This document shows, piece by piece, positions 1,446 to 60,221 of a DNA stretch of 64,000 nt. Under the pieces are notes generated by a model. The model worked only from the letters and a program-made list of their open reading frames with translations. It was not told the origin of the DNA and did not search any database. Location: NCBI GenBank assembly GCA_002869165.1, contig PKTK01000001.1, forward strand, positions 446,005 to 510,004. The letters run 5' to 3'. The stretch is from Candidatus Parcubacteria bacterium (GTDB taxonomy: Bacteria > Patescibacteriota > Patescibacteriia > Patescibacteriales > UBA12075). A program made the translations under genes and the position numbers. Position 1 is the first letter of the stretch. Each line of letters opens with the position of its first letter.

Positions 1446-2492
1446 ATGTACGAAGAAATTTTAAAAAAATACGAAGAACTTGAAAACCAAATGCAGGATC
1501 CTGCTATTATTTCTGATGTTTCAAAAATGACTAAAACATCCAAGGAACTATCAGAATTAAAAGATGTTGTTACAAAAATCAAAGAAATCAATTCCATCCT
1601 TATATCTATAAAAGAAAACGAAGAAATAATGGACTCCGAACCAGATTCTGAACTAGCTGAAATTGCTGAAATGGAAATAAATGATATGAACACAAGAAAA
1701 GCGAATCTAGAAGAAAAAATTGAAGAAGAGTTAAATCCCGATGATCCAAACGACAAAAAAAATATTATTATGGAAATCAGAGCCGGAACAGGTGGAGATG
1801 AGTCTGCTCTATTTGCTGCTGAACTATTTCGTATGTATTCACGTTTTGCTGAAACAAATGGTTTTAAAATAAATATACTTGATTCAAATACTATTGGAAT
1901 TGGCGGGTTCAAAGAAGTCATCTTTGAAATAAAAGGAACTGGCGCTTATAGTATATTCAAATACGAAGCAGGAACTCATCGCGTACAAAGAGTACCAGAA
2001 ACTGAAAAACAAGGTCGAGTACATACCTCTGCAGTTACAGTAGCAGTTTTGCCTGAAGTTGAAGAAGTAGAAATAGATATTAAAAACGAAGATCTACGAA
2101 TCGATACCTATGCTGCTTCCGGGCCTGGTGGACAATGTGTAAATACCACCAATTCAGCCGTAAGAATCACTCATATCCCAAGCGGACTAGTAGTTCAATG
2201 CCAAGACCAAAAAGATCAGCACCAAAATAAAGACAAGGCCATGCAAATACTACGAAGTCGTTTACAAGCCAAAATCGATGAAGAAAAGCAGGCTACTGAA
2301 TCAGCGCAAAGAAAATCGCAAATCGGTTCAGGCGACAGATCAGAAAAGATCAGAACCTATAACTTTCCTCAAGACAGAATTACAGACCACAGGATAAAAA
2401 AATCCTGGTCAAATATGCAGAACATCCTTGGTGGAGACCTAAGCGATGTCCTTGCCTCGTTAAAACAAGCAGAAAAAGAACAAAGGCAATAA
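1446..2492 (+). CDS. prfA: peptide chain release factor 1
   Basis: GGQ motif ([11 protein letters not shown]) and RF1-type block [18 protein letters not shown] (PxT tripeptide is PET here); followed by prmC as in many bacteria. Confidence 0.95.
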
Positions 2493-9081: not shown

Positions 9082-9263
9082 GTTTTAATTATACAATAGA
9101 AATGGGTATTTTAGCAAACCCATCAAATTACATAATATAAACATTTAAATAAAGGTGGTTTAACACAACGAATACTATTAACCACATAAATTATGTAATT
9201 TGTTTAAAAAAAATTTATTAATTGTTTTGGTTTTACCGCTATTTACTGCCAATCTTTACTTGC

Positions 9264-9362
9264 ACGCTTCTCAGGATGGGTTCGAATAATCTTTGTCAAC
9301 TCAAAATAAAAAATCGCCTCTTCGAGACGATTGTTTATTCTGAGCCGACAAAGGGACTCGAA
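9264..9362. repeat. 99-bp direct repeat, copy 1 (terminator flank + last ~20 nt of tRNA-Thr)
   Basis: Nearly identical to 9447-9545; ends ...gccgacaaagggactcgaa, the T-loop-to-3' end of tRNA-Thr, then diverges. Confidence 0.85.
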
Positions 9363-9446: not shown

Positions 9447-9545
9447 ACGCATCTCAAGATGGATTCGAATAATCTTTGTCAACTCAAAATAAAAAATCGC
9501 CTCTTCGAGACGATTGTTTATTCTGAGCCGACAAAGGGACTCGAA
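9447..9545. repeat. 99-bp direct repeat, copy 2 (overlaps the real tRNA-Thr 3' end)
   Basis: Same sequence as 9264-9362, offset 183 bp. Confidence 0.85.
9488..9514 (-). terminator. terminator after tRNA-Thr
   Basis: Minus strand cgtctc-gaa-gaggcg hairpin followed by atttttt; the same hairpin follows tRNA-Lys. Confidence 0.55.
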
Positions 9546-9598
9546 CCCATGACCCACGGTTTACAAAACCGTTGCTCTACCAGCTGAGCTATGTCGGC
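9526..9598 (-). tRNA. tRNA-Thr (anticodon UGU)
   Basis: Manual cloverleaf: acceptor gccgaca/tgtcggc, D arm gctc-agctggta-gagc, anticodon stem acggt/accgt with loop tTTGTaa, T arm with ttcgagt; no encoded CCA. Confidence 0.9.
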
Positions 9599-11008: not shown

Positions 11009-12406
11009 ATGAGTAATATGTCTAACCAAATATTAGAAAAATTACCACCCCAGAACCTAGAAGCTGAACAGCATTTTCTAGGCTCTATTTTGCTTGACAA
11101 GGATGCTATCATCAAAGTCGGTGACATGATCAGACCTGATGATTTTTATGACTCAAAACACAGGTTGCTTTATGAAATAATGATTGAATTATATTCAAAA
11201 CATGAACCAATTGATGTTGTTAGTATTAGTAATCTCTTAAAAGAAAAAAACAAGCTTGAACAAGTCGGTGGTAGAACTTATCTTGCCAAACTATCAAATG
11301 TTGCTATTACTCCTACTAGCATAGTTAACTATGCTCATATTATCCAAAAAAAGGCTACTCTGAGACGTCTACTAAAAGCTGCTTCAGAAATAACAGAACT
11401 AGGGCAAAAAGAAGATGAGGAAGTTGATGCACTACTAGACAACGCTTAAAGAAAACTTTTTTCCGTTTCTCATAATTACTTAAAAGAATCCTTTACCCCA
11501 GTTGACACACTTCTAAATGATGCCTTTGAAAGAATTGATGAATTACATAAAATGAGCGGAAAACTCAGGGGTATCCCAACTGGATTCGGTGATTTGGACA
11601 ATCTTCTAACAGGATTACAGAAATCTGACTTGATCATCCTGGCTGCTAGACCATCTGTAGGTAAAACATCGTTTGCCCTAGATATAGCCAGACAAGCAGC
11701 CGTAACACACAAAGCAGCTGTAGGAATATTTTCACTTGAAATGAGTAAGGAACAGCTAGTTGATCGTATGCTTTGCGCTCAATCAAATGTTAGTCTATGG
11801 AAAATGAGATCTGGTAAGCTATCTGACTCTGACGCCAATAATGACTTTGCCAAAATTGCTGAAGGTATGGGACATCTTTCTGAGGCACCTATATACATCG
11901 ACGACTCCCCTAACTGCTCAGTAATGGAGATTCGAACTAAAGCTAGGAGATTAAAGGCTGAAAAAAATCTTGATTTGCTAATAATTGACTACCTCCAACT
12001 CATGGAAGGTCGTGGTAAACATTCTGACAATCGTGTTCAAGAAGTAGCTGAAATTTCTAGTGGTCTCAAGGGTATTGCTCGTGAATTAAATATCCCAGTT
12101 ATTGCCCTCTCACAGCTTTCTCGTGCAGTTGAACAAACCAAACCAGCTATCCCAAAGCTTGCTCATCTTAGAGACTCTGGTTCTATTGAACAAGATGCTG
12201 ATGTAGTTATGTTTATTTATAGAAAATCCGCTGACAGGAACTACAACAAAGAAGAATTATCAGCCGAAGAAAAGAACGCTGGTGAAATCCATGTTGCCAA
12301 ACACAGAAATGGTCCAACCGGAAAAGTAAATCTATTCTTTGATGAAGTAACCGTTAGTTATAAAAACATGGCTAGAGTTGATTACCAAGAGCCACCTCAA
12401 CAATAA
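11009..12406 (+). CDS. dnaB: replicative DNA helicase DnaB, single in-frame TAA at 11447-11449
   Basis: ORFs 11009..11449 and 11552..12406 are in one frame; N-terminal domain (PPQNLEAEQHFLGSILLD), linker, Walker A ARPSVGKTSF, IDYLQLM, SQLSR; total 465 codons, as expected for DnaB. Confidence 0.9.
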
Positions 12407-25115: not shown

Positions 25116-25649
25116 TTAAATTCTTCTTAAATATTTTAAAACCACAAAAGCAATCATTGAACCAATTAAAGATGAAGATAACTGTGGCCAGGAAAAAAGC
25201 AATACCACCTTTGAAGCAACAGCACTTTTTACAATATAATGCAGTATATAATTAGCACTCAAATATAAAAATATAAATTTCAATATTGATGCTATAACTG
25301 TAGCATAAATATAAGAATTATTTTTTGTTAACATTTTATCGTAAAAATATTTGCTACTCAAAACAAACAAAGCATTAGAAACCATTATAAATGGTACAAC
25401 TGGTGCCATTATCACAGGCAAAAGTCCTCCTGCTAGAGCCATGAGACTTGGCACTACACCAATAACTACAGCGCTACGAGTCCCCAAAATAAATAAAGCT
25501 ATCAAAAGTACTGCATTTACCAATGGGCCTGTTATCCATTGCAAATGTATAAAAAATGGCAATATGGTTGCAAAAACAGCCAAACCCACAAACAAACTAG
25601 CACTTTGAGTTTTTGGTAAAGAAATAACTTTGGAATTTTCTTTATACAT
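25116..25649 (-). CDS. polytopic membrane protein (ECF S-component-like, uncertain)
   Basis: 5-6 TM helices; ATG 25649 is 2 nt from the hydA stop (translational coupling); family not securely recognised. Confidence 0.5.
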   Translation of the reverse strand: MYKENSKVISLPKTQSASLFVGLAVFATILPFFIHLQWITGPLVNAVLLIALFILGTRSAVVIGVVPSLMALAGGLLPVIMAPVVPFIMVSNALFVLSSKYFYDKMLTKNNSYIYATVIASILKFIFLYLSANYILHYIVKSAVASKVVLLFSWPQLSSSLIGSMIAFVVLKYLRRI

Positions 25650-25650
25650 A

Positions 25651-27381
25651 CTAATATCCTTTTTTCTTTTTATAAGTTGTATGCAAGACACTATGTTCGT
25701 AGTGATGCCCCTTGGCCCTTAGCCAGTCTAATACTTTCTTCACTGCCATATTGTCGTGGGCTTTCCTAATCTTCCTGTCTTTATCGTGCTTGTATAATGC
25801 TTCTATTCTCTTTTTTCTTATCTCCCAGCTAGTGGGAATTGGTTGTCCACCTCCTCCAATACATCCACCCGGACAACTCATTACTTCAATATAATGATAA
25901 TCATCCAGTTTTTCTAAAACTTTTTTAATATTTCCAATACCGTTTACCACTGCAACATTATATTTATTGCCAGCTATTTATACTTCAGCTTCCTTTAAGC
26001 CATCTATGCCTCTTACGTCTTCAAATTCAAGCCTAGAGTCACAAAGTGAATCATCACTTCCCTGACAAGCCAAATATTGAGCAGTTCGCAAAGCTGATTC
26101 CATTACTCCTCCGCTAGCCCCATAAATTGCAGCTGCGCCACTATATTCGCCAAGAGGATTATCAGCTTGACTTGGATTAATCTTAGCTAGGTTAATCTCA
26201 TTTTTTTTAAGTAAAAAAGCTAGTTCCCTATTGGTCAAAACATAATCAACTGGCAAACTACCTTTAACCTTCATCTCTCCTCTACTCGCCTCATATTTTT
26301 TAGCTGTACAGGGCATCACTGACACTATCTCAATATCTTTGGGTTTTATGCCCATATTTTGCGCCCAATAAGTCTTGATAATACCCCCCATATGCATATT
26401 TGGAGAACGTGAAGTGGTAATATTCGGAATTAAATCGGGACGATATATTTCTACGTAATTCACCCAGGCAGGACAGCAAGAAGTCATCATAGGTAAGGGC
26501 TTTTTTTCGACAATACGTTCGATTAACTCGCCTGCTTCAACCATGGTGGTAACATCTGCTGCAAAATTAACATCAAATACATAGTCGAAACCGAGCTGTC
26601 TAAGAGATGAAACTATTCTATCTGTTGTTTCTTCACCAGGTTCCAAACCGAATTCTTCACCAATACTTACTCTGATCGAAGGGGCAAAAATGGCAACTTT
26701 TGTTTTTTTCTTTTTACTGATAAGTTTTTCAACATCAGCACAATTAAACTGCTCCTGTGCTGCGCTAACTGGACAATGAACAGCACACTGACCACACAAT
26801 ATACACTGAACTTTTGAATCCTTAACTGGTCTAACTTCTTGATTTTCTCCCTTGCCAGCTATTTCTAGATAGTTTATCCCTTGCATCGCACAAGCATCAA
26901 TGCAATTCCGACAATCAATACACTGTGTAGCATCAAGCTCAACAGCATTTGCAAATTTATATACCTTTCTGTCTCCTTTTCTATCTTCAAATCTATTTAT
27001 ATTTAAATTATATTCCTTAGCGTATTTAAGTAACGGGCAGTTAAAGCGCCATAAACAATCAGGGCACTTCTCAACATGGTCAGCGTAAATTAGTTCTAAA
27101 TTGGTTTTACGAGATTTTTGCACTCTATCGGTGTTTGTTTCGATTTCCATACCTTCCTCAACTTTTGTAGAACATGATGTTTGTAAATTTTTTCTATTTT
27201 TAACTTCTACCACACAAACCCGACAGTTTGCATGTGGTGGAAAATCATCATGCTGACAAAGAGTAGGGATGTCTATTCCTTTTTCTCTAGCAACCTGAAG
27301 AATAGTCATTCCTTCATCACAAGAGACTTGTTGGCCATTCAATTTAATTTTTATTTTCTTCCTTGGCATCTTTGCTGTCAT
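25651..27381 (-). CDS. hydA: [FeFe]-hydrogenase HydA (2Fe-2S + 4Fe-4S + H-cluster domains), single in-frame TAA at 25978-25980
   Basis: ORFs 25978..27381 and 25651..25950 are in one frame; TSCCPAW, MPCTAKKYE upstream and CPGGCIGGGGQP downstream of the TAA; total ~576 codons, as for clostridial HydA; real start may be MPRKK (27369). Confidence 0.9.
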
Positions 27382-28959: not shown

Positions 28960-29319
28960 TTATTTACATTTTTCTATGATTGAGCCGAATATTTTTGTTA
29001 ATTCTATTGATTCTTTTATTAAGTTTTTTCTTTCTATCTCTAAATCTTCGTTAAAATTTATCAATTTAAGCCAATAGGTGCTTTCTTTTGCTTCTTTTCG
29101 GCTAATTTTAATTCTATGAATAAAATCTTTTTTACTTAATGACTCGTTAGCTTCAATATAATTTGCCCCAACTGAACCAGATGATCTGACTAGTTGTTTT
29201 GAATCTTCTAAATTACAAATATCTTTCTTAATTCTTCTCACCAATAATCTCACATCTCTAGCAAACGCAAATGTCCTATCTTCCAAATCATAATAATTTG
29301 CGCTTTTTGTTTTGGGCAT
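28960..29319 (-). CDS. four-helix-bundle protein (23S rRNA intervening-sequence protein family, TIGR02436-like)
   Basis: SVGANYIEANESLSKKDFIHRIKISRKEAKESTYWLKLI signature. Confidence 0.8.
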   Translation of the reverse strand: MPKTKSANYYDLEDRTFAFARDVRLLVRRIKKDICNLEDSKQLVRSSGSVGANYIEANESLSKKDFIHRIKISRKEAKESTYWLKLINFNEDLEIERKNLIKESIELTKIFGSIIEKCK

Positions 29320-31512: not shown

Positions 31513-31552
31513 ATATTTAAAGGGTTAAATTGTTATATTGTTTATAAAGTTT

Positions 31553-31658
31553 TGTCATCCTGGGGCTCGGAATGAAGTGAAGAGAACACGGGATCCAGTA
31601 TCATTCTATCACGTATAAGGGATTTCTTCAGTCGTTCCACTCCTTACGAAATGACAAG
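31553..31658. repeat. GTCAT-hairpin element
   Basis: tgtcatcctggggctcggaatgaagtgaagagaacacgggatcc ... gggatttcttcagtcgttccactccttacgaaatgacaag. Confidence 0.75.
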
Positions 31659-31722
31659 TTAAGTATAAAGCTTTTAAGTTTTAATTGAAGAGCAGGAATA
31701 CTCCTGCTCTCTATATCAAAAT

Positions 31723-32523
31723 TTAAAGTGAGAATCTTACAAACTTTTCAATTTTAGCATCTCCGAGAACATCTTCAATTTTTTTCTTATCATCTTTGAT
31801 AAATTCTTGCTTTAGAAGACATACTTCAGAATAATATTTTTCAATTTTTCCTTTCAAAATATTTTCAATAATATTTTCTGGCTTACCTTCTTTTAGAAGT
31901 TGCTCTTTATATATTTCTTTTTCCTTGTCTGTTTCATCAGCTGGAACTTCACTAGGATCAATATATTTAGGACTTGAGGCAGCAATATGCATGGCAATGT
32001 CTTTAGCTAGTTCATTATCGATCTTTTTGTCAAATGATACTAAAACACCAATTTTACCACCCATATGAGAATAAGCAGCTACTGAACCATTTTCTGATTT
32101 TAGCATTTCTATCCCTTTAACGCCCATTTTTTCGCCAATTGTTCCACTTAGATTATCTAGGGTTTCTTGAGCTGTTCCTTCTGACATGGGTTCTGCCATT
32201 AACTCTTCAAGTGAAGCTGGTTTTTTACTTTTTAGAATTTAAAATAACTCTTTGGCATAAGCTTGAAATTTATCGTTTTTTACAACAAAATCAGTTTCAG
32301 CGTTTATTTCAAAAGCATAACCTTCGGTATTATCTTCATTTGTTTCAACTAACACAATACCTTCATTGGTTTCTCTTTCACCTCTTTTAGCTGCTTTTGC
32401 AATTCCTTTTTTACGTAGGATCTCTACTGCCTTTTCAATATCTCCGCCAGTCTCATCAAGAGCTTTTTTACATTCAACCATGCCTGCTCCTGTTTTTTCA
32501 CGAAGTAATTTAATTTTTTCCAT
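31723..32523 (-). CDS. tsf: elongation factor Ts, single in-frame TAA at 32239-32241
   Basis: ORFs 32239..32523 and 31723..32199 are in one frame; UBA-like N-terminus [24 protein letters not shown], then ...KPASLEEL...IGEK... and C-terminal module; downstream of rpsB. Confidence 0.9.
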
Positions 32524-32533
32524 AGAATTCGTA

Positions 32534-32662
32534 TGTCATTGCGAGCGACAGCGAAGCAATCTCGATTTTTTACAATGACTTTAAATATTATTTATTCATT
32601 ACGAAAAATTCAAGCGATATATTCATGAGATTGCCACGTCGCTTCGCTCCTCGCAATGACAA
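32534..32662. repeat. GTCAT-hairpin element (best-preserved copy), inside the rpsB-tsf intergenic region
   Basis: tgtcATTGCgagcgacagcgaaGCAATctc ... gagATTGCcacgtcgcttcgctcctcGCAATgacaa, ~70-bp AT-rich spacer. Confidence 0.85.
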
Positions 32663-32668
32663 AAGTTT

Positions 32669-33358
32669 TTAGGCTTTCTTTTTTACTCCACTCAATGTAT
32701 CTTTGATAGCATTCAAAACCAATTTAATAGTTTTAGTTGCATAATCATTTGATGGAATTGGATATTTAATTCCAGTTGGATTGGTGTTGGTATCACAAAT
32801 CGCCACTACTGGAATATTCTTCTTTTTTGCTTCCAAGATTGCGGTTTTTTCAATTTTGATGTCCCAAATAAACAAAGCATCAGGAAGTTTGTTCATATTA
32901 GTCAAACCACCTACCTTAAGCTCTAATTTTTCGATCTCTCTAGAAATTTCCAGTTGCTCTTTTTTGGTATATCTACTTAATTTACCAGTTGACTTATCAT
33001 CAAGAAGGTCTTTGTACTTTTTAATAAGTTTTTTGATTACCAAAAAATTTGTCAAAGTTCCACCCATCCATTTCTCACAAATATAAGGTTGGTTAAGATC
33101 TGTAGCTGTTTTTTTAATAAGTTCTTTGACTTGCATTTTTGTACCTACAAAAAGAATGGTTTTTCCTTCTTCTGTAAGCTTGGTCATAAAGGCAAGCGCA
33201 TCTTCAAATTTTTGCTTAGATTGAACTAAGTCAATAATGTGAACACCGTTTCTTTTGCCAAAAATAAAAGGCGCCATTTTGGGATGCCACTTACTAGTTC
33301 GGTGGCCAAAATGCATGCCTGACTTAAGCATTTGTTCAATGCTAGGAATTTTACTCAT
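32669..33358 (-). CDS. rpsB: 30S ribosomal protein S2
   Basis: MLKSGMHFGHRTSKWHPKM, ILFVGTK, classic S2 blocks. Confidence 0.95.
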   Translation of the reverse strand: MSKIPSIEQMLKSGMHFGHRTSKWHPKMAPFIFGKRNGVHIIDLVQSKQKFEDALAFMTKLTEEGKTILFVGTKMQVKELIKKTATDLNQPYICEKWMGGTLTNFLVIKKLIKKYKDLLDDKSTGKLSRYTKKEQLEISREIEKLELKVGGLTNMNKLPDALFIWDIKIEKTAILEAKKKNIPVVAICDTNTNPTGIKYPIPSNDYATKTIKLVLNAIKDTLSGVKKKA

Positions 33359-33721: not shown

Positions 33722-34147
33722 TTATATTTCACAACAAATAAGTCTTGCTTGAATTCCACAATCAGTATCATTTATTGTATATAGCACGGTTCTTTCATCC
33801 TGCATATAGTCACCAACATAATCCTTATCCACCGTACAACCATGATATTCATACCCCTGTCTTCTTTTCATTGAATGACTTACTATAATCTCGTCTGCGT
33901 CACAGCTTAATGTCAAGTTTTTGTCAAATGTTAAGCCTTCAACTACACGACACTTGTTTGATATTCCTCCAAAATCATCATCTAGATTATTCCACATCGT
34001 CTGGGTAACAGTATCTCCAGCTGACATATTATAACTATTTAAATAAGCTAATACATATGCTCCAAAAGGAGAAAGAACAGCGGCCGAGATAATTAAAACA
34101 AACATAATAACAAATATGGCCGTCAATTTTATTTTAATATTTTTCAT
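33722..34147 (-). CDS. Cys-rich small membrane-anchored/secreted protein, paralog 3
   Basis: Shares AYLNSY...MWNNLDDDFGGIS..C..V.G....L.LSCDADE..V.HSM.R...C......DERTV......DCGIQA.L.CC with 34247..34663 and 34676..35089; likelier start MKNIKIK (34147). Confidence 0.7.
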   Translation of the reverse strand: MKNIKIKLTAIFVIMFVLIISAAVLSPFGAYVLAYLNSYNMSAGDTVTQTMWNNLDDDFGGISNKCRVVEGLTFDKNLTLSCDADEIIVSHSMKRRQGYEYHGCTVDKDYVGDYMQDERTVLYTINDTDCGIQARLICCEI

Positions 34148-34246
34148 ATTTTTTATTATTATAAAATTAAATAAACTTATAGGGTTCAAAACATTTTATC
34201 CCTAGTTTAAAGCTAAAATAAAACCTAGTTTCCAGCTGAAATTATT

Positions 34247-34663
34247 TCAGTCCAATTTACAACAAAGCAATGTTGCCTGAATGCCACAATCAGCATCATC
34301 CAGTCTAAAAAAAACAGTTCTTTCGTCTTGTATCTCATCACCAAAATAATGTTTCATTTCACAATTAGCACTCTCAGGAACCCTTCTCATAGAATGACTA
34401 ACAACAACTTCATCAGCAGCACAAGAAAGAGTCAAAGTTTCTGCATATTCTAAGCCTTCAACAATATGACAATCACTAGAGATTCCTCCAAAATCATCAT
34501 CTAGATTATTCCACATTTCTTCTGTCAATAAGTCCCCCTCTGCTTTTTCGTAACTATTTAGATATGCCAAAACATAAGACCCAAAAGGCAAAAGAACGGC
34601 AACGGAAACAATCAAAACAAATATGATTACAAATGATGTAGTTAGAAATTTTAAATTTTTCAT
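34247..34663 (-). CDS. Cys-rich small membrane-anchored/secreted protein, paralog 2
   Basis: Same architecture: N-terminal hydrophobic helix, six conserved Cys, C-terminal CGIQATLLCC. Confidence 0.7.
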   Translation of the reverse strand: MKNLKFLTTSFVIIFVLIVSVAVLLPFGSYVLAYLNSYEKAEGDLLTEEMWNNLDDDFGGISSDCHIVEGLEYAETLTLSCAADEVVVSHSMRRVPESANCEMKHYFGDEIQDERTVFFRLDDADCGIQATLLCCKLD

Positions 34664-34675
34664 ATTTTTTATATT

Positions 34676-35089
34676 TTAAATATCACAACAAATTAACTTT
34701 GCACGAATTCCACAATTTACATCCTCTATGCTAAACCAAACTGTTCTTTCATCTCGTACACTATCTCCAACATATGCTCTTATATCACAGCCAGAATCAT
34801 TTCTCCTTATCATTGAGTGGTTAATAACCGTCTCATCTGCATCACAAGAAAGAGTCATTTCTTGCGCATATGTTTCACCTGAAACCACACGACAATCGCC
34901 ACTAATTTTACCAAAGTCATCATCAAGGTTATTCCACATCTCTACAGATAATAAATCTCCAGACGACTTTTCGTAGCTATTTAAATAAGCCATAACATAA
35001 GATCCAAAAGGCGACAAAACAGCAACGGAAACGACAAAAACAAACACAGTAACAAACGAAATAGCTAATGTTGATTTATAGTTTTTCAT
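34676..35089 (-). CDS. Cys-rich small membrane-anchored/secreted protein, paralog 1
   Basis: Same architecture; C-terminal CGIRAKLICCDI. Confidence 0.7.
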   Translation of the reverse strand: MKNYKSTLAISFVTVFVFVVSVAVLSPFGSYVMAYLNSYEKSSGDLLSVEMWNNLDDDFGKISGDCRVVSGETYAQEMTLSCDADETVINHSMIRRNDSGCDIRAYVGDSVRDERTVWFSIEDVNCGIRAKLICCDI

Positions 35090-46439: not shown

Positions 46440-48539
46440 ATGATATTTTTTGATAAAAAGCACAAAAGAAAAATCTTGTTTAGAATTATTATAATTTTCT
46501 TAATAGTTATGTTTTTTGCACTAAGTGGTAACTTGGCCATTAGTTTAGCTACCACTAAATATGGGGAAATCTACATTGATTATAGTGCTTATTACACTGA
46601 TGACAAAGAAAAAAAACTGGCCCTTACATTTGATGATGGTCCGCATAAAAGAAACACGCTAAAAATCCTCAAAGTCCTAAACGATAACGATATTAAAGCC
46701 ACTTTTTTCTTTCAAGGGCAAAATATTATTAGCAACCATGATGTAGTCAAACAAGTCTATGAAGCTGGCATGGAAATCGGTAATCACAGTTTTACTCATT
46801 CGAAAAATGTTCACAGTTCTCCAACTAGGTTGAAATACGAACTAAACTTAACCAGCGAATTATTGGAAGATATCACAGGAGAGCCAGCTCTTCTGTACCG
46901 ACCACCGTTTCTACTTGATGTTGGTGGAGATCCAATCTACTTTCCCCAAGACAATATTCCTATACTAGACCAAATTCAAGCTGAGGGTTATATTGTAATT
47001 GGCGCTGATATAGACCCTAAAGACTGGGATGTAAAAAGCCCTCAAGAGGTAGTAGATAATATTGATAAGGTAATTGATAATGGCAATATAATACTTCTTC
47101 ATGATGGAGGAAAAGAAGTTAGACACACGGTTTATGCGCTAGACACTATTATAAAAAAATACAAAGATCAAGGCTACACCTTCACAACAGTATCAGATAT
47201 TATTGGTTTAAAAGAAGATAAGACAACTAAAACGACTAACAATTCCCTATTATCTACCATCCAAGCTAAACTAGACTCTATTTATCTTTATCTTCTAACT
47301 ATTTTTAGTTTCCTGTTTATTGATATTATTATAAAAGCCCTGGTGATACTGGCTCTTCTTAGACTTGTTTTTGTTTTAATATTATTTAATATTGATAATC
47401 TCAAAAAATTCAAAAGAGAGAAAAAACCTGACAAATCCCCTCCAAGTGTAGCCGTAGTAATTCCTGCCTATAACGAAGAAGCTAGCATTGCTTCAACTAT
47501 CAAAAGTGTACTAAACAATACCTATAAGGTAGACGAAATAATAGTAATGAACGATGGATCCACTGACAGCACAAAAAAAATAGTAAAAGATTTAGCATTG
47601 AAATACTCGCAAATAAAGTTATTTAATCTTAAAAACGGGGGTAAAGCCAGAGCCCTGAATCACGCCTTCCTAATCTCTCAAAAAGATATTCTGATCTGCA
47701 TGGATGGTGATTCAATCTTTGAAAAGAATGCTATCGGCCATTTGATAAAGAATTTTGATGACCCACTAGTAGCTGCTGTAGCCGGCAAGGTATCAGCTAT
47801 TGTAAAGAAGAATTACATTGGGGGCTTTCAGCAAATCGAATATATTATAGGTCAAAACATTGAAAAAGCCTCTTTTAGTACTGTAAATGCTGTTGGGGTG
47901 GTGCCGGGCCCAATCGGTGCTTGGAAAAGAAGGGTCGTAAATGCGCTTGGTGGATACTCAAAAGACACACTGGTAGAAGACCAGGACTTAACTCTGGCCA
48001 TACTTAGTCAGGGGTTTGAAATTCGTTATGAACCGCGCGCCCTATGCTATACCGAAGCCCCTACCAATATCAAAGATTTTTCCAAACAAAGATTTAGATG
48101 GATATATGGTACTATGCAATGCTTCTGGAAATACAAAAAATTTCTCTTTAATCCAAAGAGAAAAAATCTGGGTATGATGATCATGCCAAATATACTTTTA
48201 TATAACACTTTTGTCCCGTTTTTCTCGCCAATGATTGATCTGTTTGCTATTCTTGCTATCTTTACCGGCCAATTCCATGGTGCTTTACTTGCTTATAATT
48301 TCTTTACTTTATTTGATATTTTGTATGCGGGGTCAGCTTTTCTCATTGGCAATGAAAAGAAAAATTGGCACTTGCTTCTACTCATACCTGCCCAAAGAAT
48401 TTTCTACAGACAAATCCTTTATTATATTGTCATCAAATCTCTTATCAAAGCTATAGAAGGGACCAGTGCTTTTTGGAACAAAGTTGAAAGAAACGGTAAT
48501 CTGGAAAAATTTTACTCTAATAATTTAAAACACGCCTAA
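46440..48539 (+). CDS. fusion protein: NodB-type polysaccharide deacetylase + processive family-2 glycosyltransferase (PgaB/PgaC-like)
   Basis: TFDDGP, NHSFTH, LLHDG (deacetylase); VVIPAYNEE, DGSTD, MDGDS, QRFRW plus C-terminal TMs (GT2 synthase). Confidence 0.8.
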   Translation: MIFFDKKHKRKILFRIIIIFLIVMFFALSGNLAISLATTKYGEIYIDYSAYYTDDKEKKLALTFDDGPHKRNTLKILKVLNDNDIKATFFFQGQNIISNHDVVKQVYEAGMEIGNHSFTHSKNVHSSPTRLKYELNLTSELLEDITGEPALLYRPPFLLDVGGDPIYFPQDNIPILDQIQAEGYIVIGADIDPKDWDVKSPQEVVDNIDKVIDNGNIILLHDGGKEVRHTVYALDTIIKKYKDQGYTFTTVSDIIGLKEDKTTKTTNNSLLSTIQAKLDSIYLYLLTIFSFLFIDIIIKALVILALLRLVFVLILFNIDNLKKFKREKKPDKSPPSVAVVIPAYNEEASIASTIKSVLNNTYKVDEIIVMNDGSTDSTKKIVKDLALKYSQIKLFNLKNGGKARALNHAFLISQKDILICMDGDSIFEKNAIGHLIKNFDDPLVAAVAGKVSAIVKKNYIGGFQQIEYIIGQNIEKASFSTVNAVGVVPGPIGAWKRRVVNALGGYSKDTLVEDQDLTLAILSQGFEIRYEPRALCYTEAPTNIKDFSKQRFRWIYGTMQCFWKYKKFLFNPKRKNLGMMIMPNILLYNTFVPFFSPMIDLFAILAIFTGQFHGALLAYNFFTLFDILYAGSAFLIGNEKKNWHLLLLIPAQRIFYRQILYYIVIKSLIKAIEGTSAFWNKVERNGNLEKFYSNNLKHA

Positions 48540-56403: not shown

Positions 56404-56566
56404 AGAAGCTACTGGCTATAATTACTTTGATTAAATCACTTTTAAATTTTGAGGAAATTTTTTTGAAATTTTTTTTAGCAATATGGATATATTGGTCAAA
56501 AAAATTTAATAAAAATTTACCGAAATTTAAAATGATTTTGCAATGAAATTATAGCCAGTAGCTTCT
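56404..56566 (-). other. insertion 2 in rnpB: 20-bp perfect stem with a 123-nt AT-rich loop
   Basis: agaagctactggctataatt (56404-56423) pairs with aattatagccagtagcttct (56547-56566); sits immediately 5' of the conserved ACAGAAUCCGG. Confidence 0.8.
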
Positions 56567-56665
56567 ATGTATAGTTATTTATCTAGGCCTACTGTTACCA
56601 GTAAGCTCATGCGAACTACTTATAACCAGAGCGAAGTTCTGCAAACTCCAAACTAAATACTGTTT

Positions 56666-56762
56666 TGTCATCTCGTAGCGAAGCGGAGAGATCTCTTAAA
56701 TGCAAATAGCTTCACGTCTAAGGGATTTCTCCATTCGCTCTCGCTCCTTGCGAAATGACAAG
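56666..56762. repeat. GTCAT-hairpin element inserted inside rnpB
   Basis: tgtcATCTCgtagcgaagcggaGAGATctc ... gggatttctccattcgctctcgctccttgcgaaatgacaag, at the tip of the helix formed by ccagaacgaagttct/agaacttcgctctgg and aaatact/agtattt. Confidence 0.85.
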
Positions 56763-57070
56763 AGTATTTTTTAGAATTTCTAGAACTTCGTTCTGGCTTT
56801 GTTCTTGCTCCAGGTAGGGTTTACCACGAACATGCTGTCACCAGCAGTCGAAATTAGTAGCCATTTGTCTCGAGAACAAATAACACCTAAAAACTTTTCA
56901 CCTTTTATCTCGACATATGTCGAAACTAGTATAGTCTCTGCGGCACTTTCCCTAGGGTTTCCCCCGGTGGATGTTATCCACTACCCATAACCAGAGCGAA
57001 GCTCTGGCTGGAGTCCGGACTTTCCTCCCCGTTTTAATTTTGAAACGAGGCAACTATATATCTGCCTTGA

Positions 57071-59123: not shown

Positions 59124-60221
59124 ATGATCAAAAAAATCTACAAAAAAACTAAAGCTTGGCTTGATAAATATGAAAAATACCTCTCGCCCGTTGCCATGGG
59201 CTTTGGTTTTGTTATTGACAATCTAACACTCCAAAGAATCGATCTTTGGATTGAGAACCTGGTCATTATCACTTATCTTTCTATTGCTGTTTTTTCTATT
59301 CTCTATCTAAATATTTACAAAAAGAAAAAATATAAAAACCGTTTCTTGTCCTTGCTAAATCTGATTTTACCTTTTATTCTACAAATTGTTTTTGGTGGCC
59401 TCTTCAGTGCTTTTATGGTTTTTTACTCCAGAAGTGCTACCTTATTTGTTAGCTGGCCTTTTCTCCTGATCCTCGTATCAATGTTAATTGGAAATGAACT
59501 TTTTCGTGAGCGCTATGAACGTCTAAATTTTCACCTTAGCATATTATACCTAGCTTTCTTTGCCTATTCAGTTTTTGCGGTACCTGTCTTAGTAGGAAGA
59601 ATAGATGTTGATATTTGGATGGCTAGCGGTGGTCTTAGTCTGCTTTTGATAATTGTAGTTATACTGCTACTTCATCGAATTGACCCTGAAGCCATAAAAA
59701 AGAACAAGGATTATCTACTCGGAAGCATTATCTTCATCTACGCACTTTTCAATGTCCTCTATTTTACCAACCTTATTCCACCTATACCTTTAAGTTTAAA
59801 ATCTGCTGGCGTCTACCACGGAATCAATCGGAGTGATTCAAGATATGAACTTTTTTTTGAAAAGCCAGCCTGGTATGAATTTTGGAAAGAAACTTCTAGC
59901 ACCTACCATTGGCAAAAAGGAGAAAGAGTCTATATCTTCTCAGCTATCTTTGCTCCTACTCGCTTCAAGCAAAAAATATACCACAAATGGCAAATCTATG
60001 ACGAAGAAAACAATGAATGGTTAGAACGTGATAGACTTGGTTATTCAATATCTGGTGGTAGAGATGGAGGTTACCGTGGATATACATATAAAACTAATTT
60101 GGAACTTGGAAAATGGCGAGTTGATGTGATTACTGATGATGAAAAAATAATTGGCAGAGTGAAGTTTGAAATAATAGAAAAAAATTCTGATTTGATTTTT
60201 GATCAAGAAATAAACAACTAG
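59124..60221 (+). CDS. DUF2914-type membrane protein
   Basis: ~7 TM helices then a C-terminal beta domain ...YHKWQIYDEENNEW...GGYRGYTYK...GKWRVDVITDDEKIIGRVKFEI. Confidence 0.65.
   Translation: MIKKIYKKTKAWLDKYEKYLSPVAMGFGFVIDNLTLQRIDLWIENLVIITYLSIAVFSILYLNIYKKKKYKNRFLSLLNLILPFILQIVFGGLFSAFMVFYSRSATLFVSWPFLLILVSMLIGNELFRERYERLNFHLSILYLAFFAYSVFAVPVLVGRIDVDIWMASGGLSLLLIIVVILLLHRIDPEAIKKNKDYLLGSIIFIYALFNVLYFTNLIPPIPLSLKSAGVYHGINRSDSRYELFFEKPAWYEFWKETSSTYHWQKGERVYIFSAIFAPTRFKQKIYHKWQIYDEENNEWLERDRLGYSISGGRDGGYRGYTYKTNLELGKWRVDVITDDEKIIGRVKFEIIEKNSDLIFDQEINN

Follow-up and report, generated by a model that had tools for sequence, protein, structure and literature searches.

The question raised by this locus is whether a member of the Parcubacteria really makes elongation factor Ts (EF-Ts) from a gene divided by a stop codon, or whether the stop belongs to the deposited sequence and not to the organism. 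The gene, tsf, lies in a stretch of 64,000 nucleotides from the MAG of a Candidatus Parcubacteria bacterium, which is referred to here as the window. In the original prediction this essential gene was described as split by nothing more than one TAA, with the N-terminal domain and the start of the core in one open reading frame (ORF) and the remainder in the next. The features concerned are the following:

31723..32523, minus strand: tsf (elongation factor Ts), 266 codons plus a TAA terminator, identified by translation, TIGR00116 and PF00889
32239..32241, minus strand: in-frame TAA at tsf codon 95, written tta on the plus strand
32239..32523, minus strand: ORF of the N-terminal tsf fragment, 94 aa, covering the UBA-like N-domain, the conserved TDFV motif and the first part of the core
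31723..32199, minus strand: ORF of the C-terminal tsf fragment, 158 aa, starting from a Met that is internal in the normal protein
32669..33358, minus strand: rpsB (ribosomal protein S2), Ribosomal_S2, E 1.8e-79

Translation of the minus strand, which the original prediction did not mention, yields a single 266-codon EF-Ts frame in which the TAA at 32239-32241 is the sole internal stop, the gene's own terminator being the TAA at 31723-31725. As regards its layout, the locus was described correctly: one in-frame stop is all that splits the gene, the ORF list and Pfam agree on how the domains are shared between the two ORFs, both ORFs are in the same frame with no change of length (the 801-nt gene differs from an intact copy by one base), and the peptide that had been read around the stop is the one found in the translation. 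The joined product matches the Pfam family EF_TS (PF00889) through residues 70-265, covering profile positions 3-201 of 204 with an E-value of 2.9e-66; the N-terminal piece accounts for positions 3-26 and the C-terminal piece for positions 47-201, with the stop falling at about position 27 of the 204. The ATG from which the 158-aa piece starts is located 13 codons past the stop and corresponds to Met108.

The genomic context had also been read properly. The tsf gene is found directly 3' of rpsB, which lies immediately upstream on the same strand, with a spacer of 145 nt between them, so that the order of the rpsB-tsf operon is kept, and a PSP1-domain gene sits downstream of tsf. Compared with the canonical rpsB-tsf operon and EF-Ts, there is agreement in gene order, in length (266 aa) and in the match to the family over its full length, and only the one presumably erroneous base differs.

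A homology search with the joined product retrieved a protein of 266 aa (P0001), identical at all residues and with Glu at position 95, which scores 280 bits against the TIGR00116 tsf model (cut-off 104). An exact look-up showed that this protein is encoded on three public contigs with the same gene neighbourhood. The intact gene is present in four sibling assemblies, all of the same population:

ENA ERZ794999, NODE_4, 500,921 bp, coverage 23: intact tsf with GAA at codon 95
ENA ERZ794998, coverage 3: intact tsf with GAA at codon 95
Logan SRR5894289: intact tsf with GAA at codon 95
JGI 3300007102, Ga0102541_1058941: intact 266-aa tsf with GAA at codon 95 and two private changes

Throughout the 801 nt of the gene, a single base, 32241, sets the window's tsf apart from the ENA and Logan copies, the change being G>T on the coding strand and C>A on the plus strand. 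In the JGI copy, a private change is located 6 bases from the site of the stop. EF-Ts is encoded as one uninterrupted polypeptide in the four sibling assemblies and is not so encoded in the window. A 50-mer of the window taken at the stop had no match in the genome and metagenome contig collections, which lack the window's own record. The result that had been named as speaking against a split, a sense codon in the reads, is thereby found by proxy, in the form of GAA in four public assemblies.

The orthologues point the same way. Each of the best 120 EF-Ts homologues is a single protein of 262-307 aa, the nearest relatives being Patescibacteria, several of them labelled Falkowbacteria, with 62-79% identity. 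An orthologue alignment had been proposed as a check on the site, and in all 33 of the homologues aligned the column of the stop holds a sense residue, most often E and otherwise I, A, K, G, D, N or S, as corresponds to a variable position of surface type. The split was absent from every other assembly and homologue compared. Taking these data together, this member of the Parcubacteria/Patescibacteria very probably has an ordinary rpsB-tsf operon and an EF-Ts of 266 aa, with codon 95 reading GAA (Glu).

The change in tsf is one of many. The window was compared with the 23x contig of ENA ERZ794999 over 59,489 of its 64,000 bases, up to position 59,489, the comparison being tiled from loci fetched through unmutated window proteins. 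It revealed 41 substitutions and no indels. All but two of the substitutions (39 of 41) are G:C>T:A changes, seen on the plus strand as 23 C>A and 16 G>T, and a C>T and an A>C make up the remaining two. The probability of at least 39 such changes among 41 is 3e-28 if the class makes up one sixth of substitutions, and 4e-10 even if it makes up half. G and C changed at the same rate, 0.19-0.20% (p = 1.0), with no difference between strands; expressed otherwise, these changes affect about 0.07% of the window and roughly 0.2% of its G:C sites. As for sequence context, T[G>T]A accounts for 12 of the 39 where 4.5 were expected, and a G followed by A is the target in 22 of the 39. The context C[G>T]G was seen twice against 0.8 expected, which are small numbers.

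The 39 changes were also sorted by their effect, and compared with the classes expected if every G or C of the region were equally likely to change:

missense: 26 observed, 25.9 expected under random G:C>T:A change
synonymous: 5 observed, 3.1 expected under random G:C>T:A change
intergenic: 5 observed, 5.9 expected under random G:C>T:A change
nonsense: 3 observed, 4.0 expected under random G:C>T:A change

This split fits random mutation (chi-square p = 0.68), and there is therefore no sign of purifying selection; a dN/dS (omega) of 0.1, which is modest for housekeeping genes, is rejected with p = 1e-5. The missense changes fall in rpsB, ftsW, uppS and GAPDH, among other genes. The three nonsense changes, all of them GAA>TAA and all within 60 kb, affect dnaB, an [FeFe] hydrogenase gene and tsf, so that two essential genes, dnaB and tsf, are among those hit. 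Besides the one in tsf, they are:

11447..11449, plus strand: GAA>TAA in codon 144 of dnaB (gene 11018..12406), leaving ORFs of 146 and 284 aa
25978..25980, minus strand: GAA>TAA in codon 468 of the group A [FeFe] hydrogenase gene (gene 25143..27381), leaving ORFs of 467 and 99 aa; the protein has 576 aa in the reference

DnaB is intact elsewhere, with GAA at the site, its length being 462 aa in the reference and 462-465 aa across the ENA and JGI assemblies. As for tsf, 33 of its codons are GAA, it has 52 sites where G>T or C>A would make a stop, and a hit of this kind in the gene is therefore unremarkable at such an error rate.

Several other origins for these differences were considered and rejected. 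Strain divergence does not fit a stretch of 59.5 kb that is free of indels and has no more than two differences of any class but G:C>T:A. A single damaged long molecule, or a template of the MDA type, predicts blocks of changes on the same strand, and a hand count gave 18 runs where 19.9 were expected. Finally, a decaying pseudogene is not consistent with a tsf that differs from the intact gene in one base out of 801.

The distribution of the differences among assemblies is equally informative. ERZ794999 and Logan have no private differences, always agree with each other and with the majority, and lack the 39 changes of the window. The JGI assembly has a set of its own, with 12 private differences, 11 of them in the G:C>T:A class and one of them nonsense. 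Taking into account that two assemblies are free of private differences and that a third has its own set, the G:C>T:A scatter has to be considered a property of particular assemblies. The JGI nonsense change is TCA>TAA at window position 47194 (Ga0102541_1058941; locus L004, 10951-13050), and it divides a 699-aa GT2/polysaccharide-deacetylase protein into 398 and 251 aa; the gene is intact in the window.

Three of the G:C>T:A differences of the window are common to a second assembly: 8277 and 32743 are shared with JGI, and 35187 with ERZ794998. The G>T at 32743 is D206Y in rpsB. By our own arithmetic, about 0.02 shared sites would be expected for the window and JGI pair if the errors were independent and random, and two were seen. 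This recurrence indicates that at least some of the variants are not independent errors, and that at least some may reside in shared reads, be systematic errors, or be real minor alleles. The TAA of tsf is not among the three shared sites.

In light of these data, the TAA in tsf is, with high confidence, a single-base G>T consensus error in the deposited MAG and not a feature of the organism. What the original prediction implied, that an essential tsf is truly split in the organism, is not supported, given the finding of GAA in four sibling assemblies and of the stop within a window-wide, unselected scatter of G:C>T:A changes. With regard to the way in which such errors could be produced, it is suggested that they would arise either from 8-oxoguanine (8-oxoG) damage in the template or from miscalls by G/T and A/C dye cross-talk in four-colour Illumina sequencing, and that they would enter the consensus where the coverage of the MAG was low or of poor quality. 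In an AT-rich genome with many GAA codons, about 10% of errors of this class would create stops, one of which would have landed in tsf. Both the low coverage and the source of the errors, whether chemical or instrumental, are what we infer from the pattern.

Both sources have recognisable marks. G:C>T:A is the signature of 8-oxoG mispairing, and cross-talk in four-colour Illumina chemistry classically produces G>T and A>C miscalls; with respect to such cross-talk, G>T is dominant here and the sole other transversion is A>C. Shearing-induced 8-oxoG reportedly favours the CCG>CAG context, whereas TGA is favoured in the window. It has been described that 8-oxoG lesions form during acoustic shearing in library preparation, yielding C>A/G>T artefacts (Costello et al. 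2013, PMC3616734). In that source, these artefacts are described as being of low allelic fraction, and they should therefore reach a consensus only at low coverage. Like these artefacts, the differences found here are almost all G:C>T:A, strand-symmetric, unselected and assembly-specific, and are absent from the deeper assembly; unlike them, they are located in the consensus itself. A literature search retrieved no paper on SRR5894289, 3300007102, ERZ794999 or PLX28051.

Other explanations would take the stop as real. The frame runs on past the TAA without any change of length, and what lies downstream is a perfect EF-Ts core, as would be the case if TAA were decoded as a sense codon, through reassignment or programmed readthrough, to give a full-length EF-Ts. 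However, 39 of the 58 genes called for the reference contig end in TAA, tsf included (TAG and TGA end 10 and 9, respectively), and release factor 1 (RF1), which reads UAA and UAG, is encoded in the window:

1446..2492, plus strand: prfA, release factor 1, full-length, NF001859, 489 bits against a cut-off of 400

Since TAA ends most genes and RF1 is present, recoding of TAA is excluded, as far as the sequence can tell. ARAGORN found no suppressor tRNA in the window, whose only tRNAs are tRNA-Thr and tRNA-Lys, and Rfam gave no RNA element at the tsf stop, its matches in the window being the two tRNAs and the RNase P RNA. Moreover, in-frame TAAs in real genes are confined to dnaB, the hydrogenase and tsf, all of which have GAA in the same strain elsewhere, and the conservation of the stop that readthrough would entail is not observed, no orthologue in the alignment having a stop at codon 95. 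In genetic code 25, UGA is read as Gly in Gracilibacteria/SR1. The present case resembles this stop reassignment in Patescibacteria in that the organisms belong to one broad group and a conserved gene is interrupted in frame by a stop; it differs in that the codon is TAA and not TGA, that TAA is the main terminator while TGA and TAG also end genes, and that GAA occupies the site in other assemblies of the strain. Decoding of this TAA as sense is hence regarded as extremely improbable. The chance is likewise minute that EF-Ts is produced as two polypeptides, the 94-aa piece and a 158-aa piece restarted at Met108, which would assemble into a working factor. An ATG is indeed available 13 codons after the stop, and both halves are labelled as EF-Ts in GenBank. 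Nevertheless, this ATG and the sequence upstream of it are the same in the intact alleles, from which it follows that nothing has evolved for re-initiation; 13 residues of the conserved core, between the stop and the ATG, would be lost; and, among the assemblies and homologues, the split occurs in this record alone.

A different proposal accepts the termination and attributes it to a real nonsense allele of a subpopulation, for example a recent hypermutator without 8-oxoG repair (MutM/MutY-type), with either that lineage or a patchwork of its minor alleles ending up in the MAG consensus. The spectrum matches 8-oxoG mispairing exactly, the private changes of JGI belong to the same class, and the recurrence of three G>T variants in a second assembly would not be expected from random read errors, all of which is in agreement with such a subpopulation. 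Yet dnaB and tsf carry nonsense changes, rpsB, ftsW, uppS and GAPDH carry missense changes, and damaging changes show no depletion, which is incompatible with a viable clone; it is not credible that a clone could live with both DnaB and EF-Ts truncated. It has to be added that ordinary divergence is nearly nil, amounting to the one C>T and the one A>C, and that neither the 23x assembly nor the Logan assembly contains any of the changes. This proposal is consequently held to be unlikely. Even less probable is an extreme form of it, in which the scatter would be real and would reflect 8-oxoG-repair-deficient Parcubacteria in mutational meltdown, with the nonsense alleles of tsf and dnaB at appreciable frequency. 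If this were true, the alleles would perhaps be buffered by polyploidy or by the sharing of gene products within an episymbiotic consortium, and the meltdown would have its first hint in the three variants that recur in other assemblies.

Returning to a consensus error as the preferred reading, its biological importance would be nil, the EF-Ts of the organism being normal, and its relevance would be that of a warning about data quality. By an exact-sequence look-up, the 94-aa and 158-aa halves were found in GenBank as PLX28052.1 and PLX28051.1, each with the title 'translation elongation factor Ts [Candidatus Parcubacteria bacterium]' (MAG) and both encoded on a contig of 584,723 bp, so that the split of tsf has been propagated into public protein databases. 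The truncated hydrogenase was deposited as PLX28046.1, under the name 'ferredoxin'. A public MAG, and to a lesser extent the JGI assembly, would thus carry errors of the G>T type at a density of about one per 1.5 kb, and errors such as these cut essential genes into pieces that enter the databases as individual proteins. In AT-rich genomes of candidate phyla, searches for split genes, pseudogenes or recoding will keep meeting sites of this kind, for which the mutation-class test offers a quick filter. When a lone stop appears in an essential gene, sibling assemblies should be consulted first, after which all the differences should be examined for their class and for any mark of selection.

Some further features of the window can be mentioned. 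The 145-nt spacer between rpsB and tsf (32524-32668, minus strand) folds as a single long imperfect hairpin, with an MFE of -43.8 kcal/mol and a z-score of -4.3 against shuffled sequences. Its arms, at about 32533-32565 and 32627-32665, both start with GTCATTGCGAG, and the element may be an attenuator, a processing site or a palindromic intergenic element. A structure with GTCAT...ATGAC ends that resembles this hairpin is located downstream of tsf, at 31540-31660 (z -3.0). The RNase P RNA, of bacterial class A, occupies 56537-57069 on the minus strand with a score of 157 bits; since its 533 nt span a model of 367 positions, it must contain sizeable insertions. A G>T private to the window, at 56734, falls within it.

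At 33722-35089 on the minus strand there are three tandem paralogous genes encoding proteins of 137, 138 and 141-155 aa, with no match in Pfam. They have an N-terminal hydrophobic segment, the common motif 'MWNNLDDDFGGIS' and a C-terminal CC pair, and they adjoin the genes for a TPR protein and a Gly-rich protein of 563 aa. The family '23S rRNA intervening sequence protein' (PF05635) is represented by a gene at 28960-29319 on the minus strand, between GAPDH and the cluster containing the NuoF-like and [FeFe] hydrogenase genes. Lastly, two JGI contigs of the same population (369,492 bp and 129,438 bp) end at 9228-9282, just upstream of the tRNA-Thr at 9525-9598; the window and the ENA contig continue through this point, which is likely to be a repeat or a coverage break in the JGI assembly.
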